Shown piece after piece: positions 2 through 64,000 of a stretch of 64,000 nt of DNA. The stretch is from contig OZ237769.1 in the NCBI GenBank assembly GCA_965178125.1, positions 372,001-436,000 of the forward strand. The letters run 5' to 3'. The stretch's first letter is position 1. Every line of letters starts with the position of its first letter. This DNA is from Bilabrum cf. latius (lineage: Eukaryota). Made by a program: the position numbers and the translations under genes. The notes beneath the pieces were generated by a model. The model was not told where the DNA came from and did not search any database. It saw only the letters and a list, made by a program, of their open reading frames with translations.

Positions 2-1849
2 CTGACCGTCTTTGTGCCCGTCGCCACCATCGCGATCGACTTCGCTCTGGAGGGCTAGAGGGAGGGGTGGTACCCCTCCATCGCAGGGGAGTACAGGACG
101 TGGGTGGTGGGCAACGGGCTGGCTGGGTCCTGGGACTAGAAGAAAGAAGAAGAGGAGGAGGAGAGGAGGCTAAAGAGCAAGGCAGGGACACTGGGCAAAG
201 AGCGCGCAGGTGGCAAACCAAGCGAAGTAGAAGGGGACGCTGCCGCTGGTGCTGATCGCCCAGCATCGGACGACGCTTTCGACGGACTATGCTGCTTCCA
301 CTGCTGCATGCGAGAGGCACCTGAGCCTTTGCAGACCAGCAAGCTCAATGCGGGCGTGCTCATGCCGCAGACACCGCTCTGGGACCTGGCTGCCGCGCAG
401 GGCAGGCTTCATGCAGATGACCTGCGCCTGGTGGATGGGACCGGCGGGGGCGAGGGTGCAGGGCACGGTGGTGCTACGGCGAGTGGGTAGGAGGGTGGCA
501 AGCTGCAAGTGCAGGTCATGCCTCTTCCCACCAAGGGCAATAGCCCGGCTGGCGCCCCATACGGGTCACCGTCCCAGGCGGACAAGGCTGCAGCGACCAG
601 CAAACAGCAGGGCAACAGCAACAGCTGGGGGAACACCGGAAGTAGGGCGCCTCGGGCTTTGGATCATACGACGGTATCGCACGGGCAGTCTGCAACAAGT
701 GCGTTCGGTCAGTCCGCTGTGGCTTCAGCCATGGGCTCGTCTGCGCTGGGCTCATCCACCTTGGGCAACCTTCCTCAGGTGTCCCCCTCTGCACGTCCTG
801 TGACCACCACGGATGGGTCCAGCAGCGGGCCCCCATCGAGCAAGGGCAACTCTGCGAGTAACGCCACCGCTACCGGCACCGGCGACACACCTGGTGGCCA
901 AACCGGCAGCACACCCGGTGGTCCTCTGGATGCAGCCCGGGACACTGACGGGCTGACTGCGGTGGAGAGGCAGAGGAGCAGCGGGGAGGACGGGCAGGAC
1001 ACGGCCGCGCTCAGGGAACAATGGAAGCTGCAGCAGCAATAGCTGATGGAGGAGGGTGCAGGGAACGGTAGTGCGGCTTCTGCAGAAGCGAGTCACGGGG
1101 CGCAGTCGTTCACAGGCAGCATCACGTCGAGGACGGCTCTTCCAGACCACTGCGCCCCCGCATCGGGGTCCGGCGGAAGGGGGCGGGCGAGGTCGGCCGA
1201 GATCCAGGAAGCATCCGGAATCGATAGTACGGAGAGCTCCGCTGGTGCAGTGCACGCCACGCTGCACCAGACCAGGACGTGGTTCGGGCCTTCCTATAGG
1301 GCACCGCAGGGCAGCAGCTTCTACAACCGTACATGGCGCTCGAGCGGCGTGGGGGCGGGCCATGGGTCTGATTTGGAGCACAGCATGGGCGTGCACGACG
1401 GCGGGGACCATCTTGGTTTCGATTTCAGCGCGGCAAACACGTCTAGTTTCTTCGCGGCGGGTAAGGGCAAGGGCAAGGGCAGGGGCAAGGGAAGGAAGGC
1501 CAGTGGCAGGGCGGGAGGGCTGGGACCGGGGCATCAAGGGGCAGGGGGCGTTGCTCTCGTGGCGATGAGCGCGGGAGCGGCGAGAGGCTCGCGAGTGAAG
1601 CGGGCGGGTTTGTCCAGGTCTGCTTCCATGGGTACCATGGACGTGAAAGGGGGCGGGGCTGGCGGCCCCGCCACGATACCGGAAGTGGACGAGGGTGACG
1701 GCGGCGCGGCGCCGTCGGGGCGGAGCAGCCGGCAGGACCGTGGCAATCTCGATCGGTCTTCTAGGATGTCGAATTCTGCCAGGGCGCCCTCGTTGCGGGC
1801 ATTCACGGAACAGGTTGAAATCAAGGCGCCACTGGCGAAGGAGGACTGA
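2..1849 (+). CDS. 3' end of a protein-coding gene (5'-truncated); the first residues resemble the last TM helix and C-terminal tail of a P4-type (phospholipid flippase) ATPase, followed by a long Gly/Ser-rich tail
   Basis: One frame from 2 to the TGA at 1847-1849, interrupted only by in-frame TAG at 56, 137, 488 and 1040. It starts LTVFVPVATIAIDFALEG(Q)REGWYPS, like the P4-ATPase 'vallPDf...R.fyP' segment, and carries a CCFHCC cluster. Coding status is well supported; the product is tentative. Confidence 0.55.
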
Positions 1850-2069
1850 GAGCATCGCGTGGGCCGCATCCAGGAGCTAGCTTGAAGGTATCTTTTATCA
1901 GAATTGTATGCATCGGAGCATACCTGTGAATGAGTCATCAGCCACTTTAATATGTTTTGAGGCAAGTGTTTATGTAGTACATCGATATTTTCAGCTCCAG
2001 ATCCCTTTGGAGGGTGAAGGAATTTGTTTAGGTGCTCAATCAGATCCGGAATGTGACGTCTTGACATGA

Positions 2070-2582
2070 TCACAACGATTTGATCAAGTAAGCCGGCGTA
2101 TCTGCCCTCATTTTGCCCTTTCCTGCACGGTCTGGGCTTGCCATGTAATCCCAGGTCTCGCTGGCGGCGTTAATCAGCTCCTTGTCGAGGTCAGAAGTCT
2201 CAGTTGTCGTTCTCACGAAGCCTTGGTCGAGAATGTAGCCCTTGTTAGATCCAGTTTTTATTACTGTAACCGAGTGGCATCCCGTGATGAGCCCAACAAG
2301 GTATATACCGTCGTCCCACCCGCTCGGCTTGCCGCTCGTGATCGACGCAGGTTTCACCATTCCATTCCCCTTGAACATCGTGGTGTAGGTAGCCGTGCCA
2401 ATAAGGCTCTCTCCAATGTCAGTTATTTTGGACCCTTTCGCCTTTTTGATATTCAAGGAGCGCAGCACAGCGTACACGTTCCCCACGCAATCACAGTCCG
2501 AGGCTGCGGTTGAGGCCGCGACAACCTTGTCGATCAGCGCTTTGCGCGCTTTCCCTTCGTCTGTACCGCCGGCAGAAGCCAT
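2070..2582 (-). CDS. 170-aa papain-like fold protein (putative Cys-His-Asp peptidase/deamidase, Tox-PL-like)
   Basis: Intronless ORF, ATG in caacATGG context with an in-frame TGA just upstream, TGA stop. Motifs DCVGNVYAVL (Cys at helix start), GCHSVTV (His) and GYILDQG (Asp) occur in papain-fold order and spacing. Confidence 0.6.
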   Translation of the reverse strand: MASAGGTDEGKARKALIDKVVAASTAASDCDCVGNVYAVLRSLNIKKAKGSKITDIGESLIGTATYTTMFKGNGMVKPASITSGKPSGWDDGIYLVGLITGCHSVTVIKTGSNKGYILDQGFVRTTTETSDLDKELINAASETWDYMASPDRAGKGKMRADTPAYLIKSL

Positions 2583-3192
2583 GTTGAAGGATCTTGTTGC
2601 TCAGAGTCAAATTGTGTGGTGCGTGCAGCACTGCATGCAGTGATCCGTCACTCATCACACAACAACTTTGCCCACCGCCGGCGAATCCGGGATGAGAGTA
2701 GCAACTGCGCGTTGCTTCCGGTGACAAAAGTTAGCCGCAATCAGTTACAACGAATGATGCTTTACGATAACTCCAGTTTCCGACTGTGTCTGAGTCCCAC
2801 TGGCATTCTTTGGCATCCCACGGATCCAATGTAGGCATCGCGTGAGTCGGCAGTCAGGGCCCTGCTGAGGACATCTAGGCGGACGCAGCCCGATACCTTG
2901 TTTGAAGGTAGCGCTGGTACCTTGTTATATACAGGAAGCGCTCTGATAGGCCTATGCGTCTGCCGAATGAATCGGAAAGAACCAGCATCGAACGTTCGTG
3001 GAGTTTCACTTTTGTCTGTGGTGCGTCCGGTGCGCAGGCGCGAGCACCAGTTGCCCTAATACTCGAAACGACATCAACTGATTACAGGCACCCTACGATC
3101 TGGCTGATTCATTTGCGCCTTTTCGAAAACTCATTTTCAATTTTTGCTTCGATTCGGTGTTTAGTGACCGCGTGCTGCTAGTGCCCCGACTC

Positions 3193-5111
3193 ATGAACAA
3201 ACGACCAATGCTTCGCTCTTCCATTCGATGTGGGCTTCGGAGGGCGAGACATATGATCACAAGAAATGTAAGTCAATTGATTACTTCCATCGATAGTAGT
3301 TTGCCTGGCGTGGCTTCATGATGGTACTGCCTGCACACCGGGCTCCTTCAATGGCTCACCGCACAGCTCTTCGTGTCCCACTGCAGAAGTTCACGACGGC
3401 GGGACGCGGTATTTCATGGAAGGTGCATCCAATGCATGGAGCTAACTTGCTCGAGACCAACAAAACTGAAGGCGTGGTGTCACACGTGCCTCCAATACAT
3501 CGAGCACGTGCCTCGATGAGCACCATCGCGGGCATCGAACCCACTGGCAGACTGCCAGGGGATGCGCCAGAGCAGGGGGCACTTAGTGGGCAACTTCGAT
3601 GTGAGTTGCTTAAGGCGGTGGACATGCCGGGATCAGCGGACCCTGACAGCATCGAAGAGGTCCTGCATCACGTGAACCAAGTGCTCGGCTCTCCTGAGCC
3701 CGAGGACAAGGAGCGAGCTCTCGCTTTCTTGCAGGTCATGGCAAACCATGGCCTTTTCCCAGTGAACAAGGGCATATCGATGGGCACGTCGGTGCACCTC
3801 GGCCTCGCGCGGCTCGCTGTGGATCGGGCCCACGCCCTGATGAGCAGCGACGCGCAAGTTCGTGACACAGACGGTGGGTCGGTATTCGTCGACGCCGCAA
3901 AATCTAGCGGAAAATCAGCCATGCTGTAGGCGATGTGCAAGGTAATTTCTGTCCTCGCACCCGGCTCGTACCCCGTCTACATTGACGCGCTCTACGTTTG
4001 CCACAATGCGCCCACTCAACTCAGGTTGCGGTCCCTCGGCAATGCAGTCTGGCATGCGGTTCGTGCAAAGCTTAGAGAAGATCTTGGCGATGAAGGCGCT
4101 TCTGAAATGGCAAAAACAGACTCAAAGTACGAGGGCGGTGAGGTGCTTGCGTTGCAGTACGACGTCATGCCGCTCGTCAGGCGGGCTGGCATGCGGCTAT
4201 TGCTGCTGGTCGATTCGATCGATCACTACTTCACGAGCACGAACCCATCGCTAGGCTGGGGTCAAGACCTCACGTTCGTTTGTAACGAGCGCGGGGCAGC
4301 CCCGACCAGCATTGTGGCGGGAGCGTCCTCGAACCTCCGCGACATCCTGGCCGGCGCCGCCTTTATGGAGGATCGATTCTCGAGAGCAACATAGTTCGAG
4401 GGATCGCGACGGAGAGCCAAGCACTATTCACTGCCGCTTACTGATCAATTCGACCTCGAAGTCGCGCGGCGAGCCCTGCGGCAACCGGTGGATGGCGTGG
4501 ACGAGATCGGCATGTACCACCGTGCGCTCGTGATGATCATGGGTGGGTCAGTGGCTAGGCGCGTCCTGTCTGGAATCGTGCCCGAGCTCAAGAACAGCCA
4601 TCGAACTTGGCAATATACACCATGGACGGATATGCTGAAACCCTTCGATGACTGGCACCACGTGCAGGCAGTGTATCCCCCGGGCAACGCCGGTCTCGAG
4701 GCCGTCGCAGAGCACATTTACTACGGCATCTACCGCCGCAACCAAAACCTTTGGGAGCAATCTGGCGTTGCGGGCGTACTACATCCGGGTGACAGAAAGA
4801 CCTGGGACACAGTGGGGGCCATGGATGCACTCGCAAAGTACATTGCCAGGACTGGAGAGGGCTGGGACAAGGGCGCAGAGCTGTGGGTGCCGGAAACCGA
4901 GCTATACGGTGCCTATGAAGAAATGCAGCTGCGCGGAAATACAGAAGGGGTGGATTCTAGCGCCGCTAGAGGCGTGGAATTGCTTGTTCAGTACAGGTTT
5001 CTGGTGCCCGACGGAAATGGACGAGTGGCGGCGCCGTCGCTTGCACATCTGGTAGCCAGGTCGCGTCCAAGCCCGTACCTGACCGAAGAGCCAGCCATCA
5101 GAGGTACCTGA
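3193..5111 (+). CDS. P-loop NTPase (AAA/STAND-like), ~599 aa, join(3193..3267,3387..5111), with a mitochondrial-presequence-like N-terminus
   Basis: Exon 1 MNKRPMLRSSIRCGLRRARHMITRN (Arg-rich, no acidic residues) ends at a GTAAGT donor at 3268; acceptor ccactgcag at 3386, phase 0. Walker A AAKSSGKS (3894-3917) fits [AG]x4GK[ST]; Walker B-like LLLLVDSID; IVAGASS strand. In-frame TAG at 3927 and 4392; TGA stop. Confidence 0.7.
3268..3386 (+). other. GT-AG intron (phase 0)
   Basis: GTAAGT ... ctgcag; joins ATG 3193 in frame to the downstream ORF. Confidence 0.65.
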
Positions 5112-5850
5112 ATTTGGCCAGCGAGATCCTGGGCTCGAGCGGGACGGACCGGATACTCATAGAAGCAAGTATCGCGACTACTCGAGCCGGGCGCGCACGT
5201 CGAGACTCGCCCCTGACTGGGCAGCACCTTCATCCGCACTAGAAGCCATATGACCTTACCGAGAAGAATTCAAGATGATCTATTAGTCCTGAGCTTCTTC
5301 ATCCCCGAATAAAGGCGATTGACAGGAAAAATACCAGCCTCCACTCTTCTTGGCCTGCCTCTTCCGTCATTAAGATTACGATCATAATGTCTAACGCTAC
5401 AATTCCTCTCCTGCGGTGTTGCCGCGTTCTCTCTCTTCACAGAGCCCTCCTCATCGCACAGACGCTTACCATCTCATCAGTGTTCTTGGCATTCCGGTCG
5501 TTGGCTTTGCTGCACGAAAATGTCTGATGTATCCGCATCGGGTCAAGATCTATGCTGCGAATGACCCGACTTAATCGCCCAAATGCCCAGAGTAGTAATG
5601 CCGTGTACGAGAGGAGGTCCCCAGATTTGTTTCGGTGTGCTGGGGGGAGAACCGACTGTTGATGTCAATTTTTCTGACCAAAACCGACCAGGTGGGACAA
5701 ACCTGGGGATTTCCGAACATGGGCCCCGGGGGTGCCAAAACCGACGCGAATCGGATTCTTTCGGCGAGTCGAGCAAGCATCCAGATTCAGTCTGTGTTTC
5801 GTCCAGCACGGCCGGTGACTCGCCGCATTCATCCACCATCGTTATCATCA

Positions 5851-8074
5851 ATGGCTGGTGCATCTAGTGGTGCTAGTTTAGACGTCATAGGTAAAGCCGT
5901 GCCACCAGACGGGCTCGGCGAGACGACGGGTGGCGGATTTGCCTCTACTCTGGGTGCATCATCGAGTACCTAGAGCAATTCCTCTCAAAGTGAGCGATTG
6001 CGACATTGAACAGTGCTAATGCGGGCAACGGAGGTTGTGTTCGATGCTTGCGGCTGTTGAGAAGCGAGTTGCTTTTATCTCTGCTGCCATCACATCGCTA
6101 CGCAGAGCCCGCAGTCCTCCATCTTGAGCTTACCGGTGTACGTGACTTGCTGATGGGTCTTCGATGCTTAAAACAACCGGAGGGGACCGCCAGGAGGGTA
6201 GCCGTGATGGAAGAGTTGTTAGCCATGCACCAACAGCATTTGAACCGCGACGCATCAGGCTAGCGGGTTCCAGACATGGCCCGGCTGGCGTGCGCCCTTG
6301 GACGTGCGCCAAAAAAGAGCGCAAAATTTGACTGGGACCACACGGCGAAGATCCCGCTGCCCATCAAGAAGAAGCTGCACAAGACGCTCCTCCACAAAGG
6401 CTAGCTCGTCCGCGCGTTCGCTGAGATGTGGGCCGCCGAGCTTCTTGCCCTGGTCCAGGTGAGACCGTATGAGTGGTATGGCACTGTATGTGACTGTTTG
6501 CGCAGCTTCGCATGGTTTCTGAGTGTAACTTACATTTGACAGTCCGATCGCAGGCGTATGCGGTCGCCACCAACACGAACAGCCCGAGCGCAACGACAAA
6601 CACGTCTGGAGCGAGTACCGCAACGAACGTCAAAAATGTCTTCGAACAGGAGTATGCCAACCGCTTTAAGGGACTCACAAAAGAAGTCGAGGTGGGGGGA
6701 ACGCGCTATGTAGTGAAGCTCCCACTGGCGCCTCAAGGCGTGCCGAACATCACACGTGCACTCGCCCAACACTCCAAAAGCTCCTTGTCGTCCAGTTCGT
6801 CGGCTGCAGCGAGTGGTCAGACTGCTGAGGGGGTCCTCGAGCGAGTCAAGGGGTTTGTTCAGATGTGGCGCAGCAGAGGCTGGCTAGCGATGGACGACGG
6901 GGTGGAGAGGTTCGACAACGCCTTGGAAGGCTTTGTCCAAGCTGCGGGAAGCAAGGAAGCCATCTACACCCTCTGCATCCAGACCCGCGTTCAAGTCGGC
7001 TCTTCGGTCGCAAGATCGATGGCAGCGCATGTGCAGCAAGGGGGGGGAGGCATGCAAAGCCAGGCCGTGACCGGCATCGGGCCGGGGCCGTTCGCGTCAC
7101 AGATGTAGCTAGCGAAGAAGCTTGCCCAGAATGCCGGAGAGCAACAGACGCACGCAGAGGATACGAGTGTGTCTGCAGTGAGTCCTGGATCCAGCCCCTC
7201 TTCCCGCCCCAGCCCCAGCCGCAGCCGCAGCCGCAGCCGCAGCGGCAGCCACAGCCCCAACCCCAGCTCCGGCCCCGGCCCTGGCCCCAGCTCCAAGACC
7301 AGCTCCGGCTCATCCGGGCAGAAGTCCGGAGGCAAAGCTGCCGGACGAGAGCGGGTTGCCGGAAGGAAGAGGAAGGGGAGACCGGAAAGCAGGCCTGCCT
7401 CTGACTCTTCGGCCTTGGCACTGCTGATGAAACGCGCTGCTGAGATGCAAGCTGCATCGGTTACCGTGGCGAAAGGCATCACCAACGACATCGTGGCGGG
7501 AGTGGTTTTCTTGAGGCGTCGCGGGCTGCGCGACCTGGCACATTGGCTGCTACTAAAGCAGGGCAAGGTCCAGGACAAAGCTGCACAGATCGACCCGCAG
7601 CTCTGGCACGCGAGGGTTTCCGGGCTCGACGCTTACTACACACCCTCCCAACGATCCAACATCATCGAGGCAGGAGGTGATGCTCTGTGGAGAGCGAATC
7701 GAAACCTCATTGCTGCCAGTGTCATCACAGAGCAGGATGCGACGAAGTTCTCGGAACTCCTGGACGGCATGGCCAGCCCCCTACCGCGCAGCAGCAGCAG
7801 CAGCGCCAGTGGTAGCAGCAGCAGCAGCTCCATCACCGCCCAAATCGCTCGGCAGCTGCAAGGCAGTCAGTCGGCGGATACTGGCCTTACCGGTGCTGGC
7901 CTATCCGTTCCAGGAGCTGCACCTACCCTAGTGGTGGTGCCACCTGTAGGAGGTATCGGCATCCCCGCGGCGGGCATGCGGGTAGCAGCGCAAGGGGTAA
8001 CAAATGAGCAGAGAACAGCTACTGCTGAGTTCGCACTCTCGTCAGGGGGGAGCGGCGCCCGAATATCGGATTGA
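5851..8074 (+). CDS. Hypothetical protein, join(5851..5989,6106..6458,6554..8074), with a Ser/Arg/Gly low-complexity tract
   Basis: Two GT-AG introns (GTGAGC...cgcag, phase 1; GTGAGA...cgcag, phase 0) join three different frames exactly. In-frame TAG at 5971, 6261, 6402 and 7106; TGA stop at 8072-8074. No domain recognised. Confidence 0.7.
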
Positions 8075-8203
8075 CGAACCTTCACCTAGCTTCGCTGTGA
8101 TTGTTACGAATAGTTTGTACAAAGGTTCTGAATTGTCGATGGATTGCACTTTTACGCGACTGAGCTCGGTTTTCGCAACTTAACTGAGCTCGGGTATATT
8201 ATC

Positions 8204-35137: not shown

Positions 35138-35195
<58 letters not shown>

Positions 35196-46610: not shown

Positions 46611-46736
46611 GCTGCGGCAGCTGGTTGCAACAACAATTGTGATTTAGTTTCCTTTTTAACGTGCCATTATACGATCACTTGCCTTTGTAGATATTATAGT
46701 GATTTAGTCGATCCCCATGGAACCACTACGTCTGGA

Positions 46737-47428
46737 TCACCTACTATCTGTGAGTTCTGTATTGTTTCGTACGTACTCTGTGGAGAATCCCTGGGTGTCT
46801 TCACTGATTCGACTTCCATTCAAGTTAACAGCAACCAATTTTGGAAGTGCACTTTTTACCCGGTACGCTGCTACGATTGCCGCAGGACCTCGAGAATCAT
46901 GCGTCCGCTTCAAATCTACCGTATAGACCGCCTAGAGTGGATGCTGGCGCGTACTAGGCCTATGTTCCAGAATGGTAGGGCCGCCCCATCGAGCGACCAA
47001 TGAGGTTGTCCGATGGACTGCAGGGGGCCGGAGAGCCTGGCATTGATCCCGATCCTAACAGCCAAGCCCGCCGAATAGCGAAATAGAAGCAAGTATCATC
47101 TGTTTGGAGCCAGGAAATCACGCTGAAGCGCCCCATTTTCCCCTCTGGTATCAACGAAGAGTCTCGGTCCGTCCTCGTCTACGATGAGGCTGGCATCTGC
47201 GAGTGCCTATCGACGGAAGAAAGTGAGCTGCCCTTGACAATATCCTGGTCTGCGTGTTTGCTCTATTAATTGATTTGATTTGTCCGACTGATCCTTCGAG
47301 GCTCGTCGTCTGCTGCTGGTTGACGTGCCGTGGCTGGCTCGGTGGCCGTGAGCCTCGAACCCTGCCAGCCTTCGAAAGGATTGCTGGCAGGCGAAGCCGC
47401 CGCCTCGGAGCATGGCACATAGCACCAT
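46737..47428 (-). CDS. Possible small minus-strand gene(s): two consecutive ORFs (47428-47096 and 47099-46737), open only if TAG is sense
   Basis: 110 and 120 aa, both ending in TGA and overlapping at ATGA; no recognisable domain. Confidence 0.25.
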
Positions 47429-48004
47429 AGTTGTTTTAAAATTTGCGGCTATCTCGCGCTGTGCGAGCTTTGGCCATACTAGGGGAATGCATGCGTCCCA
47501 TCGGAAGCTGTCGGCTCGGCTGCCCCATTCGCGTCATTGTTACCAGGGTTTTGCAAGTGCGCGGATGTGCAATGCACGAATGCTTGAAATGAATGCGTGA
47601 CGTGGCCATTGTGGCGATTCTGTGCTGTGAAACGTATTATTTAGGCGCGGCGTACCCTGCTTTGCTGGGTGCCGAGCGATGATTGGAGCCTGAGAACTTT
47701 TGTGCGCTCGGTGCGGCCGTCACCGGAACTGTTTTTCATCTCGGATCCCAGAATTGTAATGCATGTTTGTTAATGTGCAGTGCGTGGGATCCGTGCCGCT
47801 GCGGTGGACCATTGGTCCAATTGCGGCCCAGTCGCCAGGCGAGACTTCTATTACATAGTTGGGTGCCGTACGACTCATTGCAAAGCTTATTCACCCAAGC
47901 CATCAGATGCAGGGTGACAAGATGTACTCACCTGTCTTCTAGGCCAAGGGCGAAGCTATTTTCTGCTACCGTGCTGTAATTATTGCTCCGTGTTTCCATC
48001 GCAG

Positions 48005-51000: not shown

Positions 51001-54000
51001 GTCTCGTCGCGCTGCCGCTTCGAATGCGAAGAGCGCGCTGTTGGCAAGGCAGATCCAGAACGGGGATGGCGGCGTGGGCAACGATGGCGGGTCCGGGGGC
51101 GGCGGATCATCCGGGTCTGGTTCCTCTGGCCTCATGCGGCGAGGGATCGGTGGTCTGTCTCAGGACACGGTGTCCACGGGGCAATTTGACGGTGCGATTG
51201 CGCTCACGACTGTGGAGGAGCTGCTCAGGGCAGGACGGGGGAAGTCTCTCCCGAACGTGGCGGGGGCGAGAGAGTGGAAGGAGTTGGAGGGCGCTGCCAA
51301 GACTGCCAATGATTGGGTGCGGCAGGTGCGGAAGGCGCTCGAAGACGCCACAGCGGCAGAAGCAGCAGCTGCGGAGGATCAAGCAGAGAGACTGGGTGTC
51401 AAATCATCTGGACATGGTGCGTCAAGTGCATCTACTGCATCTGGTGCACTAGCAAGCAGCAGCAGCAGCAGCAGCAGCAGCAAGATGGTGGATGACGCCG
51501 AGGATGAGGCTGGGGTGATCGGCACGAGCGACGACGAGTCCCTCCGATCCGGTCCCAGGGCCGCACTCGTCACAGCACTAGAGGAGCTGGACGAGCTCGA
51601 GGAAAGCGGCGATGCCCTCCACGTGCACGTGCCGGAGCATGCACTCCTTAAGATGGAACTCAGGGCGCGCAGGCTGGGGCTCAGGGCACGGGATGCCATT
51701 CGGGGCAAGCGAAGGAGAAGGCTAAGCGAGCTCACCCGCATCATAGGAGAGTTTGAGCAGGCCCGTGCCGAGGGCGTGTACACTCTGCCGAGCAGTAAAG
51801 CTGCCATGGCGGCCAAGGCGCTCGGCGGGACCAGGATTCAGTACTCGCCTCCCCGCGCAGCCATCGAGGGCGAGATTCGACAGGCGGTCGCCGCTGCAAC
51901 CGCCTGGTCCCAGAGGACAATCAGGCTGCTGCAGCGGAGGTGTGGCATCGACAGGCTCAGGACGGCGATCAGTGACGCGCAGAGTATTCCCGTCGATATG
52001 TCCGTTGAGCAGGGGCCCCTGGAGGAGGCCATCGCGGGCTGTGCCGCGTGGGAGACTGCAGCCGCACCCGTGATCGACGCGTTGAAAGCAGCTGCGGCGG
52101 CGCACTCATCACACAAGCAGCAGGACCTGGAAGAAGGGGTCGCCCCATCGGAAGGCCAGTCGGAGGATTTGCCACTCTCCTCTTCAACCTCTCGAGATGA
52201 TGCACCCCGCGTGCCACTTGCCCGCCTCCGCAGCCTCGTTCGCTCTGCAGAGGCGCTGCAGGCTTCCCCTGCCGGAGTGGAGCTGGTGCAAGCCGCTTGT
52301 CTCGAGGCGGAGCGTTGGCTGCGGCGGGCGGTTGCCGCACTGCCTGAGCACGAAGTGGCCCGCATGCTGATGGAGGACGACCCCAGCCAAGGCGCTGATG
52401 CACACCTGAGCGCGGATGCTGCGGCTGGAGGCAGCGGGGCGAAAGACAGAGCCATGGCAGCTGCCTCGATGCAGAAGGGGTTGCACGACCTGGCGGGCAG
52501 CAGCAGCGCAGCTGAGAGTGCAAACAGCGACGGCGATGATGATGATGATGACGATGCTGATGATGACGATGATGAAGATGTTGTGTCTGCGCGCGGCTCC
52601 CCGCCCACGCTGCCGGACGACCCGCCAGAGTTCGGCCGGTCCGCGTCCCGCGGGTCACGCCGCTCGCGGGCCTCCGCCTCCAGCAGCAAGCGTGCCAAGT
52701 CCAGAGGTAAGAGTGCGGCAAGCGGCCCAGGCTAGGCAGCCAGCCGGTCATCCAAGGCGTCGCGCGGCGGCAGGCGAGGCGGCAAGTCCCTCGCCTGCGC
52801 CGCTGCATCGTCATCGTCGTCCTCACAGGGTCGCAAGCCTGTAGCGAGCCAGGATCCAGTCTCGTTGGATGAGTTGGAGCAGCTGCAGCAGGACGCTGCT
52901 GGGCTGGCAGGAGACATCCGTGCTCCGCTGCGGAGGATCGAAGGGTTGATACGTACCGCAAGCGCATGGCAGCGGGAGGCCAATAGTCTGCTCGAAGCCT
53001 GGTTTGGAACCGCAGCAGACGAGCCGATGCACCCGGGAAAGGTGGCGGAAATACATGCGGCGCGCAGCGCTGCTGTTGCTGCCGCATGCGCCGCCGTGAA
53101 GTCCGGCCGATCCGGTGAGCGAGCAATGGCAGCTGCCAGCGGGGCTGCTGGCCGGATCCTTGGCGTGGGCCGTGGGCCTGCCGCAAGGGATCAGGCAAGA
53201 GCAGCATGCAGATTCGTCGTGACGAGCGTGGCGCTGCTTCGTGTGGCGGGCAGGATCGGCGTGTCCATCGAGGAAGAGGCCACGCTGGAGCAGGCACTGT
53301 CCGTTGTCAGATGGTAGGCAAAGGCTCGCGGCGTGCTGTCGCTCCTCGGTGCAATCCGCAAGCGAAGGGAGGAGTTCGCTCCTGCGGCCGTCCGCATTCT
53401 ATCTGAGCCAGAGGACAAGCCACGTGTCGGTGGTAGAGCCGGCGCAAAGTGGCGCCGGCCGGCACTTGTCGATCTGTCATCCTGGATGGACGATGCGGCT
53501 GGAGCCAGGGAGCGCGTGAGAATGAGGCGGGCAGTTCGCAGGGCCGTGGTAAGAGCTGTGGTGGGTGCCGATGGGGTGGGTAGCGAGGGTGACGAGGAAG
53601 AGGTGCAGTCCAAGATAGAAAGAGCGCTTGCTGCCTTTGGCATCGACCTGTCATCCGATCAGGCGGAGGAGGATGCGACCGCAGATATGCGCGATGGTGA
53701 TGACGACGACGAGGATGAGGACGAGGACGAAGGTGATGCCGAAACGCACGGTGAGGATGAGGACGACGGAGGCAAGCAGTCCTCTTCGTCTGGATTGCGA
53801 AGGGCCCACTCGGCCTCTTCCGCTGCGACGCAGGACACTGCAGCCTCGCACAGGCCCAAACGGCACCGAGCCAGCGGGCAGGGCTCCATGGGCGATGAGT
53901 CTGGCGGGGACAGTGACGTGGTAGAGGAAGGGGTGGAAACTGTAGGTGCCGCTGAACGGAGGGGCAGAGGACGGGGAAGGGGTAGGGGTAAGGGCAGGGG

Positions 54001-57000
54001 CAGAGGACGGGGCAGGGGCCGCGGCCGCGGCCGGGTCGCGGCCCCGGCACCATCCCCGCCCACAACGAGGGCGACACGGGATGGAGCAGTGCAAGCAACA
54101 GCCTCTAGCGGCATCCCCAAGGCTCCGCCGCAGTATGCAGCGGGGAACAACGCACTTGCTAGCGCTGCGGCAGAGCCCACGTCATTTGCGGGCGCGTTGC
54201 CGAGGCCTGGTTTGGCTGCTTCTGGCAGGGGAAGGGGCCGTGGCCGGGGCCGTGGGAGGGGGAGGGGCAGGAGGGGCCGGGGCCGTGGCAGAGGCAGGGG
54301 CAGGGGGCGCGGGAGAGGACGGGGTCGCAAGTCGGGCGGGTCAGCAGGTCGTCAAAGCGGAAGCGGGGCGTCGAATGACGAGTGGGTGGTCCCACGTGCG
54401 CCACGGCCGTCTGGGCGGCAGTCAGGTAGCGCTGGATTCGGGCCAAGCGACGCGTTGGCTGTGCTGCTGCGAGGTCTTGGGGTTCAGTTGGGCCCCGGTT
54501 TCGAGTACACGAAGACCGCCAAGCCGCTGCAAAGGGACTGGGACGAGGCCTGCGCGCCCTTGGAAACTGCCGTTAGCCGAGGGGTGCGCTTCGCCAGAAT
54601 GATTGGCAAGACTGCGCTGTATGGCGTGGATGAAGAACGCGCTCGAAGGGCGGCCGCAGAGGTGGGGCAAGTGCTGCAGTCAGCCGCGAAAAAGCGGGGC
54701 TGGATGGAGGCCAGCGGGCTTGCGCTGGAACATGCAGCGCTGCACTTGGAGACTGGCAGGTTTGCGACTGCGCTGCGTGCCGATGTCAGAGGTGATGAGG
54801 TGCCGCTGGCTCTAGAGCTGGCTGGTGTGACCGTGGCGAGTGCAACGGATGTGTCGTCAATTGGAGCGGATGCCATCAAGAAGCCGGACGACAGCGGTGG
54901 CGCTTCACGCGGTGCTGCAACGGCTGGAGGTGCCCAGCGATCCGGCGGTGTGGCGTCCGCGGCGAGCAAGCTGATGAGCGATGCTGGAGATGACGATGAA
55001 GAAGAGGACAAGGGCAAGCGCGACGGTACCGAGGGCACTCACGACAAGGAATAGGGATAGCAGCACGAAGCCTAGCAGAGCATCAAGGCAAGCGAGATCA
55101 CCGCCATGCAAGATGATGACAGCTCCGACTCAGACGAAGCCGACAGTTTCGCGGCAAGAGCGGGCAGGCGACTGAAACACAAGCTGCAGATGGACCCCTT
55201 GGCTACCGCAGCGGTGCAAGAGATCGAAGCAGCGCTGCAAGCTTCTTCCCAGTCGGATTCTGGAAGCCCCGTCATTGGAGCAGCGTCAATGCCCGGCGAT
55301 CCCTTGTCTGCCTTGGCAGGAGTTACCGCTGAGGAGGCCTTCGCATCCATTGGCGGCTTGGGGCCTGCAGCCAGCCACGTTCTTCTGCACGGCATCCTGA
55401 CCAGTGCAGGCAGCGAATTTGGGCCGGACGGGGCAAGGCTGGGGCAAGACGAAGGTACCATCGCAAGGCGGATGTCCAAGGTGATCGAAGCGCTGGACGT
55501 GGGCAGCACTGCCGGCGGCGAGTACACGCAAGCAGACTTGGAGCTGGTGACGGCAGCCAGGCAGTTCCTGAGCCTAGAGTCGCTCCAAGAGCTGGTCAAG
55601 GAGGGCGAAGAGCTGGGCGTTGGGTCCATGGCCGGGCAGGCCCTGCAGCTTGAAGACGCGGCAGACTCCGTCGACCCGGAGGACTCGGAATCGATTGTGT
55701 CCGGGAGTCGCCAAGCGGCCCTCTTGCAGCAGAGCGCTGCCGCGAGCGACGCAGAGCGATCCGCGGTGCTTGACGCCATTCGCCGAGAGGCCACCGCGGC
55801 GCACCAGTGGCTCGAATCCGCCGAGTAGCTGCTGTGCGCCAAGTATTCCCCGGGCCGCTCCGACCAGGATCTCTCTCGCACCCTGGATGCACTCGTGGCC
55901 TCCATGAATCCTGCCGAACTGCGGAAGCAGCCGGGGCTGGGTAACGTTCCGCAAGACCCGAGCAAGGGCTCGGTGGTGGTTGGATCAGCTATGGAAGGGG
56001 AGGGCCTGCAGTGCGCTTTGTCTCTTGAGCAGGGTCTCCTGCTCGTGGCTGCTGGACAGCTGCTGAGCGTGCCTTTGGCCACCTTGGACGTGCTTCGGAA
56101 GGAAACCGCCATGGCACTTGCCATGGAGACGGGCTGCCAAAGATTGTTTGCAGCCGCGGCAGCAGCGCGCGCCTCCGGCTCAAAGGCAGGGAAGAGCAAA
56201 GCGGGCGTGTCCTCGTCTTCGCCGTACTACTACCAACTGCAGCTGGATAACCCCGAGTTTGATGGATCGCCAAGCGCACAGGGATTGCCCGGAGGTGGCG
56301 CGCCTGCAGGCAGCAGCGCGGTGCCACCAGAGCTCGCGGTCCGCGGGGCCATTGCCCGATCCGGGCTGCCTTCCATCCAAGTTCTAGCCCGGTTAGCACA
56401 CAGCGTGGGATACAGGCTCGCCCTTGCAGGCGATGCCGCAAGCAGAAGCAGCCAGGTGGTTCAGGCTGCTGAGCAGTGGATCCAGCAGGCTCGGGCCATG
56501 GGATTGCAGCACAGGCAGGCAGATCCCATGGGCATGGTGCGGCTCCTTACCCAGGCAAAGCGCATTCCTATCGATCTTACGGAGCCGATATTGGCCATGG
56601 AACGCGCCTGCAAGCAGCACTGCATGTGCAGGCAAGCCTGGCAGGACCCGATGATCCACTGCGACGCTTGTGGGACGTTCTTCCACGCGCAGTGCCTTGG
56701 TTACTCCGATGACGAAGCGGCCGCGATCGCGGAGGGGCAGGAGGCAAGGGAACAGGCGAGGTCCATCCTAAGGCAGGCCCGAGCGAAGGCGATTGAAGCA
56801 GCGGAGGCAGGTCGCGTGAAGGAAAGCCGATCCATAGCGCGACAAGGCATGGCCAAAGCCGACGAAGTACTCTTGCGGGCCCCAGCCACTCCCTTCGTCC
56901 CCAGCCGCGGCACCAGGATCCCGGACCCTAGGGACGTGGAAGAGAAGACGGAAGTTGAGCTGGCGATCGAGGCCGCGACCCTCGCGCAGTACTCGGGGAG

Positions 57001-58820
57001 GGGCAGGCCTCGAAGCGCGAGGACGGACAGGGGCCCGAGCCTGGCTGATGAGCTGGCCCAGGTGCCGACTCTGGATCCTGTATCCGTCTCGCACGAGGCC
57101 CTGTTCGACTCTGCAGGTGGGAACGGGCACGTCAAAAAGGCAGCCGGGGGGAGGAAGGCCGTAAAGGCGTCGTCCGCGGCAGCAGTTGCAATGGAGGATG
57201 ATTCCGACGAGGCGGAAGTTGGTGAAAACTCCAGTGGTTCGCATTCCGGTCGCGCCGGTGTCACGCTCCATCCGCCCCCTCTTCAGCCTAGTGCGCCGTA
57301 CCCGTTCCTGCGACTCGGCGGGGCTGCCCTCCTGCCCTACAGCAAGTTCGCGTTTGGGAGCGGGCAGCTTCCAGAGCGCGACAGCAGCCACGGAGCCGAA
57401 TCTGTTGCAGTAGACGGCGAGCTGAGAACGCGGTGTGCTCCCTTCCTGTGCCCTGGGTGCCGAGCCCGCTGGACTCTAAAGGTGGTGGTGGACCGGGGTG
57501 TGGTTGCGCTTCGAGCGCTAGTGGAGGCGCATTTGCTCGATGCCTCCAGGGCCTCCGCAGCGGAGGTGGCTTCGCTGAGGAGGCAGGTGCAGTGGCGCGA
57601 CGCAGTGCTGACTTGGGTGGCGAGCTTCGCGAGAAGACAGAAGGCTGCCAAAGCGGCCAAGGCTGAGCTTGAAAAGGGTGCTAATGGCGATGCCGATGGT
57701 GCTGGCGATGCTTCTGGCACTGGCTAGGACTCGGCGGCCTTGCCCGGTGCTGCTACCGGCGAGACACCCGGAGCCAGCGAGCCTGGCAACGGTGAGGAGT
57801 CTGCCTCAGGTGCCGGTGCATCCAGCTCATCCAGCGGCGGTGCAGGGGCCAATACGGAAGAACCCAGCCAGGCCAAGATGGAAGATGGCGATGTTCTCGA
57901 GTCTAGTGACGGAATGAAGAGCGCAGCCAGAAGCTCAGATGATCTGCAAGGCAAGGGCGACGATTCCGACGCAGCCAGCAAAGAAGCCGACAAGGGCGGC
58001 AGCTAGGCGGTCTCTGCCGATGCTGACGATGCTACAGCTGCCCGCATCAAGTAGCTCGAGGAGGAATACGGAATAGGTGCATCTTACATTTAGAGGGAGC
58101 TGTCACGCCTCCCAGCCTTCGCGCCTCCCCAGCGCGCGTTCGTTGGCTCGGCACCCGTCAGGTCCTGGGTGGAGCAGGTGGCCACAGCGTTGGGTGTATC
58201 GCGCGTGTGCAGGCAGCAAAACGGTACTCTGGCTGTTCTGCAGGCGCGCAGTGCGGAGCACTTGATGCAGCTGCTGAGGGCGGGTCAGCACGCCTCGATC
58301 GGATCGCTTCGGGGACCGCTCAAAGACGCGTGGAGCGGGTCACAGGCGCTCTGCAACAGCAGCGCCCCAGCTGGTAGAGGCACAGCTGCGGTCGATGGGC
58401 CAGGTGCGGCGTCTGGCGAAGGCCCAGTCAATGGCAGGCTTCGCGGATCCTCCTTTGCCCCGCAACCATACGACCCCGCCACGGGCGAATTGCTTCCTCT
58501 CCCCGATATCTTTGACCAGGCGAGGCTGGCGGAACGTTCGGCGCAAATCGCCTGCCTCCCTGCCTGGCTGCGGAACCGGCGACTCGGCAACGCTGACCTC
58601 TTGCGGATCACTCGGCGGTGCAGGCAGATCTTCTTCGTGCAGCCTGTGCCCGCGCCGACTGTCAGGGTAGAGGTCGCGACCGACGTCCCTGCCGGGCTAG
58701 GGATCGGGGGCGAGGCAGATCTGGGCTTCGAGACGGAAGATTTGCCGCTGGATGAGAACGGTAACTTGATGCAGCAGCGATCGAATGAAGAAGGCGACAT
58801 CAACGGTACCCTAGGCAAGG

Positions 58821-58869
<49 letters not shown>

Positions 58870-61690
58870 TGAAGTTGGCAACGTGGACGCAACAGCGACT
58901 TCTGCTGGGAAATATGCGGGGACATCCAAGGCTTCAGCTGGACGTATCTCTTCTGTTAAGGACGGTCAGCGGATGTCTGCTGCAAGCGCTGCAGCTCTGG
59001 TGGACGGCTGGCTCAACAGAGGGGCAATAGGAAGTTTGCCCTCTGAATGCAGCCCCGAGGCGCAGGAGCAGTGCGTGCTTCCTGCCCCTAGTACAACCCA
59101 GGACTCGTGCAGACTTACCCCCACCACCTAGCTCGCCGCGCCCCCCACGCTAGAGATCTGCGTGGAGCACGTGTGCACTGCCCTCAGGGCTCTTCTGTGG
59201 GCGGGGCGCTACTTGAACCCGTGGAACGCACGACTAGAGATGCTGAGGGCATCAGCGATAGCAGTGGATCCCGCTGTTCCTCATCTGTAGTCGGCACAAG
59301 CCATCTTGCGACAGCAGCAGCAGGCTGCAGCTGACGGCCACCCAGAGGCCATTCCCTTACCTCACCCCCCACAGTAGCCCGGGGATGGATACAGGTTGTG
59401 CGCCGGTCTCGGGGTCGGCGGCCCGCTGGAGGCTTGTGGCCGGCTGGAAGATGTGTATGGCGCACTGTTGACAGCTTCAAGCGTGCCGCTGCTCGGTCGC
59501 GATGCTGAGGATGCAGTATGTGGCATGGGACCGGGCGCATGGTCGGTTGACGCGGCGGAGGGCAGCGGTGCGGGCGGCTCGGGCACGGCCCCGATCCTTG
59601 CTTCGATTGCAGGCCGTGCTGCCCTGTGGAGACACAAGGCTAGGAAGCTGCTCCGGCAGGATGGGCCGGTATCTATCAAGCCGTTCGAGCAGCATGTGGC
59701 TGCGGGCAGGCGGATCCCCGTGACTCTGCCGGAGGAGGGGTCCATGTCCAGCGTGATCAACGATGGAGGCAGGAGCTGGTGCGTGTGCGGCGGGCTGAGC
59801 CACGGTTTCATGATTGGATGCGACTTCTGCGACCAGTGGTACCACGGCGAGTGCGTCGGGGTGACCCCTGAGAACGCGCCGCAGCCAGACATCTCCGGCA
59901 TTGGCAGGCACGCGCTTACCGAGCACGACCAGGGCAAGTACCGCTGCCCCAAGTGCTGCACCGGAGGGAGGCCGTACCATTTCCAGCGCGAGATGGAGCA
60001 CTCACAAACCATGAAGCAGGAGCGGGAGCAGGCAGAACCGGGGCTCATGGCCAAGTGCTGGGAGCCTGTCAACGTGCCGCCGGCGACGCGTGTAGCGGGA
60101 ACTTCGATTCGCAAGGACCCAGCCGATGGTGGCAATGCTGAGTAGGGTGAGCAGACGCAGGATGAGCAGGGAGGCAGCGATTCCGCTGGTCAGTCCTCGC
60201 CGTCCGTGCGGTATGTGACTGACCCGTGGCTGGAGAACAGGGCACGCGGCGACTTGGCCGTGAAGGGGCTGGCGCAGTTCGGCTGCTACCTGCCGGGCGG
60301 CGGTTCGGCTCTCGCGGAACGCGGCAACAAGGACCGAGATGAGAAGGAGCTGGAGGAGGAGGAGGAGGATGGCGCGGGTGCAGTGGATGATGGGGAGCTG
60401 CAGCCCGTGGCACTCGTACCGCTGGCGGCCGGCGCCGCTCCCGAGCATGCCAAGCGAAGGCCGTGGGTGGGCCGTCTGCCCCTGGTGGCGAGCTTCGCGC
60501 ACCTGCGGCCGTCCCGCAACCGGTTCGACGCGCATGCGGTGCAGCGCATTGCAGCGCATGCCCGGGATGGGTGGGTGGATCGGCTGGGCGCCGAGTGGCT
60601 GCCCCCGCCTGCTTCCTCGGAAGCGCTGGCGAAGCGCCGTGGAAAAGAGGCGTCAAGCAGCGGGGAAGCGGGGTCAAAGGACAGCAATGAAGGGGGGACA
60701 GCAGTCGCTGATGCAGCGGCAGGATCTCCCAAACGGGCGTCATCGACAGCAAGCAAGCCTGCAGATCTGGAGGAATGGACGCAGGAGCTGCCACCTGTCA
60801 AAGACGTGGGTTCTGCATCATCACCGTCATCATCATCATCGTCGTCGTCGTCTTCTGCCACAACGTCCAGTGCATCTGCAGCCAAGGAACCTGAGCGAAA
60901 GTTCGATCCCCCAGCGGTGCCCCGTTGGTGCCTAGAGGCCACGAGGCGCGGGGAATCGCTCTCCAACGACGCGCTTAAATCGTACTTGCGCACGCTACAA
61001 TAGGAGGCAGACGTGTCCCAAGGAGCGGTCGGAAGGACCTCCCATCGTCGTCACACGATGCTCCTGCACCAGATCGGGCTGGCCAGCGAAGCAGAGCTCA
61101 GGGAGGCCCAGGCCATGGCCTCTGCATCGGCAGGTGCTGCCGCCGTAGGGCCATATGCGGGGGCGGGGCACAGGCTAAGGCGCATGCAGGAGGACGCGGG
61201 GATCGATCCTTCGATCGGTGGGCATGCCCCCGCCATGGGCGCCTACGACGGATCGGATCAGCTGCATCTGGCCAGCGACGTGGGTCTGTTCAAGCAGGTG
61301 GTTGCAACCGTCAACGAGGCAGCTGAGGCGGCGGGACTCGTGGTTGGCCAGGGCGAGGGCAGGGTGCCCCTTGAGGTGGCCGCCGCCGTGTTTGGCCACC
61401 TTGAGCCGCTGCTCCGATCCTAGCAGCGCAGCCTGAGCCAGTTCGAGGTGCACACGATCGCGATGCAGGTGAGGCAGGTGAGGCTGGGGCTGCACGTGCA
61501 AAGGGACGCTGGGCTAGACGGCGGCGTGGGCGGAGAGGCCGGAGGAGAAGAGGATGGTTTCCAAGGAGGGAGAGGACAGGCACGCATGGACGATGATGGT
61601 GTCGATGATGGTGATGGGCATGGTAGGCAGAGCACGATTGGGCGAGGCGGACGACGGTCGACCGAACGGCGGTCTGGTCGCCACAGATGA
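48005..61690 (+). CDS. Large chromatin protein with PLU-1-like helical repeats and two PHD fingers (KDM5/JARID1 C-terminal-like), ~4,500 aa, join(<48005..48872,49060..61690); 5' end uncertain
   Basis: Phase-2 intron aa|GTGAGT...ccgcag|g, then one frame from 49060 to the TGA at 61688-61690 broken only by TAG. PLU-1-like repeats (e.g. AALVWKKRAEQLL...PT...AEYLPVDLSPEVAALRRAVARADAWRGAARATL). PHD fingers HCMCRQ..MIHCDACGTFFHAQC and WCVC...MIGCDFCDQWYHGEC...YRCPKC. Acceptor-like catcgcag at 48004. Confidence 0.8.
48873..49059 (+). other. GT-AG intron (phase 2) containing a C12-G-C11 tract at 48981-49004
   Basis: GTGAGT donor and ccgcag acceptor; restores AAG and switches to the downstream frame. 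Confidence 0.75.
53958..54330 (+). repeat. Two coding RG/GR dipeptide repeat tracts
   Basis: RRGRGRGRGRGKGRGRGRGRGRGRGR and GRGRGRGRGRGRGRRGRGRG... in the PHD protein. Confidence 0.85.
58823..58867 (+). repeat. (GAGGAC)7 microsatellite encoding an ED acidic tract
   Basis: Read directly. Confidence 0.9.
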
Positions 61691-62192
61691 GCTGCACCTT
61701 TGCACTTTGACACTAGTACGATACAAGTTGCATTACATACCACTGGATTATACTCTTGACCTGGTGCATCGTACACACATGACTATCAACTTGAAGCAAG
61801 CAAGCATACACCCACCTATCGAGGAGCGTTTGACGGTGCAGATTGGCTGCAGATTGGTTGTGCATGCGCGCAATGAGATCGAGTTGGCATGCAGCATTAG
61901 TTTTTAGATTAGGTTAAATTACAAAGTGGCCCTAGAGTTGAAGTGTCTTGCTGGATCGTGAAATTTGGCTAGCATCCGTTGTTTACTGGCGCTTTAGTAG
62001 GTTTTGCACGAGGTTCAGCGGCAGGTGCGTGAAATCCGTGAAAACCTCGAGCAGTTGAAGTAGGGGTGAATCTTAAACTGCAATTGCACCTTGTCCCAAA
62101 GCCAAAACAAAAATGCAGTGATCAGGGAACCTTCCACGTGGGAACGTGAGGAACTCCGGTCAGCACTGCAACTGCATTTTGCAATTGAAAGC

Positions 62193-64000
62193 ATGGCCGG
62201 AAGTCCTGGCCGCCCTGCTTCTCTGACGCCCGCACTTATCGTCCCAATATTATAGCAACTTGGGAATGAGAACAAATCAGTTCGTGATAAAGCCGGAGAA
62301 AAGTTGGTGCAGGTGAGCTTTGGTTGACTTTATGTCGCACAGTGTGCGAGAACTGTCCTTGGGGCAGCCCAACTGCTGATATCTTGTATTGATTTAATTG
62401 TGCCTTGCCATGCAGGGAAGAGAAATTCCAGGGTATCTCCCGTCGCTCATTCAGGTCGCCTCCAAGAAAGACATGGATGTTACCGTGCGAACGCAAGCGG
62501 CTATCGCTGTCGGCGAATGCTGCAAAAAATTGTGGGCAGAGACCGACCCGAGATCTATGAAAATTGCGGCTAGCGATCTGGATACCGTTCGACGAAACAT
62601 CATTCCTGCCACGCTCGGAATCAACGAGTTCTAGATTGTGCGCCTGCTCGGCAGCGGCGTCGCTGAAATATTTCTGAACGACTATCAGACGCACCCAGCA
62701 GCCTCAGTCATGCCAGAACAGATCAGAGACGGAATCATGAGCCGAGACTCTACCCGCATCCGGAACAGCACGCTCGTGTGGTTCGACATGTGCAAGCATT
62801 ACTCCACCAAGGGCTACGATGGCCCCGAACGACGCGCCATGCAGGACTTCAAGCGCGGCCCCATGGATCCCACCCGGTCCAAGTTTGACAAGGGCATCGA
62901 GGTCGTGAACCCGGTCCTTCTAAGACTCGCGCAGTCCGCCTACAGCGCCATGTCTCCAGACAGCTGGCTCGTCCTCCGCTACTGCATCAAGGCATTCAGG
63001 CGATCCACGCAAAGCACCGTCTCGGGGCCGTACCTCACGCCGGAAGGATGCAAGGACTGGCTGCAGCTCTGCGTGCGGATCTGCAAGCTGCCCTTGCCCG
63101 AGCCGGGTGAGCCAGGCACCCCTTCGGGCCAGCCCACGGACCCTGCGGCACGGAGGCACTGGCCATTCTGGAAGGCGAAGAAATGGGCACTGCGGACGGG
63201 AGTGCACTTCATGAACCGGTTTGGAAGCGGGCCGGACATCATCCGCTACGATGTGCACAAGGTGAGAGAGAGAGAAAGAGGCAGGGTCTGGGCACTGCTG
63301 GAACAGAACTGCTTCGCTTCCTGCGGCTCACAATCGGCCCCCCCTCGTTTTCGGTCTGTGTCCCACTGCCACCCACTGCTGTCCGCTGAGATCGCATGCC
63401 CTGCGCTTTTCGTCCCTGTCCGATACCGCCACTGCAGGCATTCATGAAACCGGTGGAAAACGTCATCGGGCCTGCTTTTACAGAGAGTGCTTTGGGTCTC
63501 CTTGCAAGGCGAGGCAACGGGAAGTTCCTGCCGGAACGGCTGCAGACGTTCTGCCTCGAGGCCATTCGGCAGGGAACTGCACCGGAGAAGACCTGGAGCA
63601 TGATCAAGCCCGCCCTCCCGATGATCATGACAAAGTTCTTGCCTGTAGCGATCGGGTTCTCGGGCGATGCTGCCGACCTGTGGAAGGAAGACCCGCTCAG
63701 GTACGTCTCCGAGATTGTCAGCGAGGACGCAACCACGCAGATCGACAGGGTGTCTATCGCGGTGACCATCAAGGCGATGCTCCGGATGCGAGGGGGATAC
63801 ATCGCACCCCTCATGCTCAACTGGGTCATCGGCCAGTTCAAGCAGGTCAAGTCCATGCCTTTGGGAGGGCCGCAGGCAGTCCGATTGGTGTCCCTCCTGG
63901 GCTACGTGGACATCCTTGCCGAGTACCTCGTCAAGTACAGGAAGAAGTACGCTGCCGCCACCGAGCCAGTCCTCACGATGGGCATCATGCCGTGCATCAG
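62193..64000 (+). CDS. Importin-7/8-like karyopherin-beta (SAD2/Nmd5/Sxm1 family), 3'-truncated, join(62193..62312,62416..63261,63438..>64000)
   Basis: N-terminal IL(Q)QLGNENKSVRDKAGEKL and IBN_N-like VRTQAAIAV...W; family signatures WPFWKAKKWA...RFGS and TWSMIKP...LWKEDP.RY. Two phase-0 GT-AG introns (62313-62415, 63262-63437). In-frame TAG at 62253 and 62632. Confidence 0.85.

Follow-up and report, generated by a model that had tools for sequence, protein, structure and literature searches.

The genes in a 64,000-nucleotide stretch of DNA from Bilabrum cf. latius (contig OZ237769.1 of assembly GCA_965178125.1, positions 372,001 to 436,000 of the forward strand; this whole stretch is referred to below as the window) use UAG as a sense codon beyond reasonable doubt. 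Comparison of the encoded proteins with those of relatives makes it very probable that UAG is read as glutamine with UGA as the terminator. When the standard stops are applied, the plus strand appears as a series of abutting open reading frames (ORFs) of a few hundred codons each, and when TAG is read through these fuse into six frames. The six units comprise 19,041 codons and contain 96 TAG, no TAA and no internal TGA. A sequence-only reading of the window had claimed about 100 in-frame TAG codons without TAA or TGA, and this count was borne out, with TGA found at frame ends only.

The largest frame, at 9117-46610, runs uninterrupted for 12,497 codons and contains 66 TAG and no TAA, with TGA at its end only. 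The other two frames of the same interval carry TAA and TGA together at 1.5% and 2.1% per codon, from which the natural logarithm of the probability (ln P) of the frame being open by chance is -188 to -268. For a second long frame of 4,212 codons (49052-61690) the corresponding ln P is -57 to -105. The openness of the giant frame and its lack of internal TAA and TGA indicate that TAG is read as an amino acid within the genes of the window. TAG occurs in frame at ~0.5% of codons vs 0.7-0.8% out of frame, and the comparison of frames in the giant ORF shows that TGA is shut out of frame and TAG is tolerated. The base that follows TAG is distributed as it is after all codons (chi-square p 0.13), and TAG occurs as close as 27 codons before a stop; these two observations argue that neither context-driven readthrough nor an obviously position-dependent meaning is involved. 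Programmed stop-codon readthrough was considered and is ruled out by the 66 TAG codons in one ORF together with the ordinary following base. Ambiguous stop/sense codes with in-frame UGA or UAA, as in Condylostoma, karyorelicts and Blastocrithidia, were also considered, and no internal TGA or TAA was found. The earlier claim that UAG is a sense codon is thus upheld by the 12,497- and 4,212-codon frames (ln P of at most -188 and at most -57) and by the presence of TAG in spliced contigs.

Contigs of four public runs were aligned on 44001-64000. In three of the runs (X6, X7 and X8) the contigs join 62307 to 62411 and 63259 to 63436 at GT..AG boundaries, skipping 62308-62410 and 63260-63435, and these joints indicate that the contigs derive from spliced RNA. 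The records list no RNA run for the stretch; the RNA status of the three runs is a guess backed by the spliced joints only, and the spliced contigs are the firm part of this evidence. The exonic TAG codons at 62253 and 62632 of the importin-like gene described below are unchanged in the spliced contigs of all three runs. No differing letters were reported on 44001-64000, and at least 21 of the 29 TAG codons there are covered among the contig pieces listed; the one single-base deletion lies in a low-depth contig. As far as the contigs show, the TAG codons are therefore neither spliced out nor edited, which was the check that the sequence-only reading had proposed.

The identity of the amino acid is indicated by a close relative that is represented by 11 Logan-sourced protein fragments, found by word and hidden Markov model searches, that are 75-97% identical to the two big ORFs of the window. 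These fragments had been predicted under the standard code and were broken up for that reason. The alignments comprise 4,414 positions and cover 24 TAG columns, of which 22 are aligned and two are gapped. The residues of the relative at these 24 columns are Q (13), E (3), K, A, L, P, M and V (1 each) and a gap (2), and the probability of finding at least 13 Q in 22 columns by chance is 6e-13. In the 14 TAG columns with conserved flanks (at least 15 of 20 flanking residues identical and ungapped), Q is found 12 times, with one E (18432) and one L (27207). A column likelihood that used a substitution table from the same close-relative alignments ranks Q best over all aligned columns, with H 36 and E 37 nats lower, and again in the conserved-flank set, with H 32 and E 42 nats lower. 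Where the TAG columns have a residue other than Q, it is in most cases one that a single base change separates from TAG (E, K, L). TAG codons may favor unconstrained sites, and many of them would be recent one-base changes from GAG, AAG or TTG.

Within the window, a TAG codon interrupts a poly-glutamine tract as (CAG)8-TAG-CAG (14403-14432, plus strand), and Q makes up 16 of the 192 residues adjacent to TAG, an enrichment over its 4.3% background. A self-BLAST of the 96 TAG contexts returned this CAG tract as its sole match. Classifiers based on neighbors and on composition, trained on the window, gave no separation of Q from E, with Q, E, L and V left together or E slightly above Q; in the composition classifier L, S and K fall 14 to 26 nats below Q. 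These classifiers are not decisive because TAG sites are no random sample of the sites of a residue. The alignment of importin and HECT homologues at TAG columns, which had been suggested as a further check, was also carried out. The HECT TAG falls in an insertion and the importin TAG at 62632 aligns with I/L of importin-7, so that the latter does not by itself favor Gln; the importin-7 column is presumably a variable one. The assignment of UAG to glutamine, which had been weakly argued from the sequence alone, gains most from the close relative, where Q occupies 13 of 22 aligned columns and 12 of the 14 whose flanks are conserved and leads every other residue by 32 nats or more, and a more distant relative adds support.

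The same code very probably extends to the close relative, as judged from where its protein fragments end. Eight of the 11 have their last residue immediately ahead of a TAG codon of the window (16605, 18372, 20316, 21255, 24495, 27237, 50240 and 60143) and a ninth stops one residue off; the chance of such a coincidence between fragment ends and TAG codons is 7e-17. Additionally, the longest contig listed for each of five fragments (P0008-P0012) has an identical length of 22,114 bases, which suggests that they come from one contig in which the frame of the relative runs past its stops.

A more distant relative was found by a metagenome scan with an alignment (A1) of the window sequence and three relatives. 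It is a Joint Genome Institute (JGI) metagenome contig (L001) of 5,121 bases and 59% GC that is 33-37% identical to residues 1799-3372 of the giant protein. Its positions 2-5119 form a single end-to-end open frame of 1,706 codons with 19 TAG, no TAA and no TGA, and its other frames contain 9-10 TAA and 24-43 TGA. The TAG column at 15942-15944 (plus strand) of the window is also TAG in this contig and is Q in the close relative and in a further relative (P0016). Another TAG of the contig lies opposite Q in both the window protein and the close relative, and yet another fills the Q slot of a (Gly-Gln)n repeat. The two relatives appear to share the code. TAG makes up 1.1% of the codons in the metagenome contig (19 of 1,706), about twice the 0.5% of the window, and its GC content is the lower of the two (59%). 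A first metagenome scan with the HECT C-lobe as the query gave no match, no match was found when prokaryote genome contigs were scanned with the same alignment, and word searches found only the clade of the organism itself. One further protein (P0007) has only PHD fingers in common with the window and was uninformative.

The two other stop codons behave differently from UAG. All six ORF ends are TGA, these ends being defined by the ORFs without mapped poly(A), and with no internal TGA the claim that UGA terminates is supported. TAA is absent from the 19,041 in-frame codons of the window, where ~33 would be expected at the CAA/CAG ratio, and from the 1,706 codons of the metagenome contig, where ~8 would be expected on the same basis; UAA is not a sense codon. 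TAA is also found at none of the six ORF ends. If TAA made up 20-30% of stops, zero in six would be expected 12-26% of the time, and a TAA share as high as ~30% fits the count. With TAA at half of the stops or above, six TGA ends would have p of at most 0.016, which makes stop usage dominated by UAA, as in Iotanema, unlikely. The formal code supported by these comparisons would be of the NCBI table 15 type (UAG = Gln), with the qualification that the UAA stop of that table accounts for none of the six ends.

The window is best explained as part of the nuclear genome of a eukaryote that is rich in GC and poor in introns, and whose UAG would have moved from stop to glutamine, with UGA the terminator at every gene end seen and UAA not read as an amino acid. 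By analogy with other UAG-only codes, with Tetrahymena and with the predictions for Iotanema, UAG and not UAA would be decoded by a tRNA-Gln whose anticodon is CUA and which a single mutation separates from tRNA-Gln(CUG). By the same kind of analogy, eRF1 would have lost or weakened its recognition of UAG and kept that of UGA.

Several observations weigh against this explanation. The close relative keeps Q at 173 of 193 ordinary Gln codons (CAG/CAA) and at 13 of 22 TAG columns that align, E is found at three TAG columns (18432, 49853 and 57725), the first of which has well-conserved flanks, and in the local-composition classifier E comes out on top, 3.1 nats ahead of Q in second place. Importin-7 has a hydrophobic residue (I/L) opposite the importin TAG at 62632. 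The close relative is seen as protein only, and TAG at its fragment ends is deduced. UGA as the stop is read from six ORF ends without mapped poly(A) sites, one of the runs (X6) is flagged as "probably DNA" and the RNA status of the runs is a guess with the spliced joints as its only backing, and the tRNA scan found no tRNA gene in the 64-kb window.

The alternatives concern the residue, the stops and the reality of the TAG codons. It would be a clear surprise if UAG encoded glutamate, or were ambiguous between Gln and Glu, as in peritrich ciliates, Blastocrithidia and the ciliate PL0344. E does occupy three of the 22 aligned TAG columns (18432, 49853 and 57725), the local-composition classifier puts it 3.1 nats above Q, many of the TAG codons lie in acidic low-complexity stretches, and GAG is one base from TAG. 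The column likelihood nevertheless puts E below Q by 37 nats over all aligned columns and by 42 nats with conserved flanks, where Q holds 12 of 14 columns, and the metagenome contig has TAG opposite Q and in the Q slot of its Gly-Gln repeat, as the window has TAG inside its (CAG)8 tract. The classifier moreover assumes random TAG sites, an assumption that is contradicted by the fast evolution of TAG columns. Another residue, such as Leu (as in the rhizarian exLh), Ser (as in Scotinosphaera), Tyr, Lys or Trp, has hardly any probability left. L at 27207 and K at 49754 in the close relative and the hydrophobic residue opposite the importin TAG at 62632 would be in its favor, but over all aligned columns Y and L lie 45 and 52 nats below Q with S, K and W lower still, and L, S and K trail Q by 14 to 26 nats in the composition classifier.

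A code in which UAG is dual and position-dependent (read as an amino acid within genes and as a terminator close to their 3' ends, as in Condylostoma and karyorelict ciliates), or in which UAA is unassigned and UGA is the sole terminator, is unlikely, and of the alternatives it is the one to which we give the most weight. Only six gene ends are seen and all are TGA, with no TAA in frame or at an ORF end. Against a dual UAG, zero ORFs end in TAG, and the giant ORF has TAG at 46437 and 46527, which is 57 and 27 codons ahead of its terminal TGA; against UGA as the sole terminator, the absence of TAA from six ends is what would be expected 12-26% of the time at a TAA share of 20-30%. That the TAG codons are untranslated, being assembly errors, pseudogene lesions, missed introns or RNA-edited sites, is next to inconceivable. 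Assembly errors are possible in principle in a single assembly, and no evidence for them was found. Four runs from three studies match 44001-64000 with no differing letters reported, the spliced contigs keep their TAG codons, 12,497 codons are free of TAA and TGA, eight TAG codons coincide with fragment ends of the close relative, and one coincides with a TAG of the metagenome contig.

A bolder form of the glutamine assignment, which we regard as rather improbable, is that the organism belongs to an undescribed clade of non-ciliate, GC-rich protists in which UAG moved independently to Gln, UGA is the sole terminator and UAA is unassigned or nearly unused. That clade would, with the same low joint probability, have at least three members that range from ~35% to ~85% protein identity, one of them known from an environmental metagenome only. 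If this is true, it would be a one-stop nuclear code without ambiguity.

The window has a GC content of 59-67%, with coding sequence at ~63% GC and intergenic spacers of 0.4-1.4 kb at 47-55% GC. All seven ORF or transcript units of the window lie on the plus strand. The six plus-strand genes that had been proposed are all open, and the count is low, as at least seven units are present with the addition of a spliced one at ~47011-48876. The four introns seen are all of the form GTGAG..CAG and are 103-782 bases in length. Rfam and tRNA scans of the 64-kb window found no tRNA gene, no rRNA and no Rfam match, and the eRF1 gene is not in the window. The placement with bicosoecid stramenopiles such as Cafeteria and the independent reassignment, both suggested by the sequence-only reading, found no support in these scans, in the protein atlas or in the word searches.

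Three small ORFs are found at the 5' end of the window, and a Pfam search placed none of them in a family. The first (2-1849) is open at the 5' end of the window and contains four TAG codons (56, 137, 488 and 1040), the second (3168-5111) encodes a G-K-S P-loop-like motif and contains four (3294, 3297, 3927 and 4392), and the third (6494-8074) contains one (7106); all three end in TGA. The named TAG sites of the sequence-only reading are all present (3927, 62253, 62632, 41985, 14427, 1040, 15309, 22344 and 53315), and the "conserved contexts" ascribed to such sites are mostly not positions that are conserved across eukaryotes. In the gene described as having a Walker A motif, the TAG at 3927 does lie four residues past G-K-S, and the assignment goes no further in that no Pfam family was found. 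The TAG at 41985, which was placed between the parts of the HECT N-lobe, falls in an insertion inside the HECT domain. For the TAG said to lie in a DOC-like domain, Pfam and PDB sequence searches of 29517-31016 and 23472-24494 found no DOC.

The giant ORF (9117-46610) encodes a HECTD3-like HECT ubiquitin ligase. Its HECT domain lies at 42165-43190 (PF00632 in Pfam, E 3.4e-44), and HECTD3 is the best match to it among solved structures. About 3% of the length of this 37.5-kb ORF is matched by any Pfam family, and relatives of ~35% identity retain conserved blocks well upstream of the HECT domain, such as those at ~15900-16300 and 17650-17750. TAG density is roughly doubled over the first 40% of the ORF, which contains 42 of the 66 TAG codons. 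HECT ligases usually end a few residues past the catalytic lobe, and the aligned HECTD3 follows this pattern. In the giant ORF the HECT domain is not C-terminal: the frame continues for ~1,139 more codons (43191-46607) with nine TAG and no TAA or TGA, and encodes an acidic, Gly/Ala-rich sequence. Among the contig pieces listed, one from run X6 spans 44001-46228 without a joint.

Downstream of the giant ORF lies the spliced transcribed unit at ~47011-48876 (introns 46750-46885 and 47223-48004; last ORF 47980-48876, ending in TGA), for which no Pfam family was found. It is followed by the 4,212-codon frame at 49052-61690, which contains 19 TAG codons, ends in TGA and encodes a protein with a PLU-1 domain (51578-52330, Pfam) and PHD fingers (~56645-56716 and 59780-59956). 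The 5' part of an importin-7/8-like gene occupies 62196-64000, with exons 62196-62312, 62416-63261 and 63438-64000, introns 62313-62415 and 63262-63437 (both GTGAG..CAG) and TAG codons at 62253 and 62632. Its identity follows from a match to Xenopus importin 7 (E 3e-4), a borderline IBN_N match and its proximity to Cse1/importin atlas clusters. A word-based search with exon 2 of this gene found zero full-length importins, and the protein atlas returned only families (importin/Cse1 and HECT) without useful taxa. The spliced importin contigs of three runs start within 4 bases of the ATG at 62196 (62192-62198) with no extra 5' letters, which hints weakly at a very short 5' untranslated region and at the lack of a spliced leader for this gene; the starts of contigs are not proven transcript starts. 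The region 44001-64000 is present in eight runs (X1-X8) with four coded organism labels from four studies, with a small share in a protist-metagenome run, and some of these runs may have picked up the organism from a co-culture or as a contaminant.

UAG and UAA are nearly always reassigned together. Codes of the table 6 type, in which both encode Gln, are found in many ciliates, hexamitin diplomonads, some ulvophytes and oxymonads. The code of the window resembles these in that UAG would be read as Gln, presumably by tRNA-Gln(CUA). A table 6-type code was rejected, as no TAA is found in 19,041 and 1,706 codons vs ~33 and ~8 expected. Reassignments of UAG only are few, and in the parts of the literature available to us they comprise Iotanema, a rhizarian, Scotinosphaera and some ciliates (PMC11687900, PMC5304391). 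These cases are a natural test bed for the discrimination of UAG from UAA by eRF1 and tRNA. A search of the open full-text literature, with subscription journals and supplements outside its scope, found no GC-rich non-ciliate lineage with UAG = Gln besides Iotanema. The formal code is already known (table 15), and the lineage may be new. To the known cases the window adds a GC-rich genome with enormous single-exon genes under a UAG-only code. The code appears to be common to relatives down to ~35% identity in the giant HECT protein, so that the change could be dated on a tree, and the fast-evolving TAG columns, at which the relative, where it differs, mostly has residues one base from TAG, offer a view of how new UAG codons arise. 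There is also a practical consequence: annotation of this organism with the standard code shreds its genes, and the public proteins of its relatives are cut at every TAG.

Other UAG-only codes assign different residues, namely Leu in the rhizarian exLh, Ser in Scotinosphaera and Glu in the ciliate PL0344, where UAA encodes Lys (as given in the portions consulted of PMC5304391, PMC11687900 and PMC10553269). They resemble the code of the window in that the meanings of UAG and UAA are uncoupled, and differ from it in the residue, with Leu, Ser and Glu at least 37 nats worse here over all aligned columns. UAG-only reassignment to Gln in ciliates is described for Protocruzia tuzeti and two phyllopharyngean lineages, going by the relevant sections of PMC11687900. 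The formal code of these ciliates (table 15) is the same as that found here. The window has frames of 37 kb and 12.6 kb and spliceosomal introns of 103-782 bases. Such long frames with spliceosomal introns would be unlike ciliate macronuclear DNA.

Like the organism studied here, which is probably not a ciliate either, the fornicate Iotanema spirale is a non-ciliate in which only UAG is reassigned, to Gln, and UAA is not a sense codon. In I. spirale the eRF1 N-domain is reportedly altered at GTS, one of the motifs that read UAG. UAG is described as encoding Gln in this species with UAA and UGA as stops (PMC5304391, PMC9161772), UAA is given as the primary terminator, and a tRNA-Gln(CUA) together with an eRF1 that no longer reads UAG is predicted (both in the sections cited of PMC5304391). 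The relatives of I. spirale, within what the cited part of PMC9161772 reports, do not have its code. The two systems differ in their stops, since Iotanema uses mainly UAA whereas six of six ends in the window are TGA (p of at most 0.016 if TAA made up half or more), and in their distribution, since the code of Iotanema stands alone among its relatives whereas two relatives here apparently share theirs.

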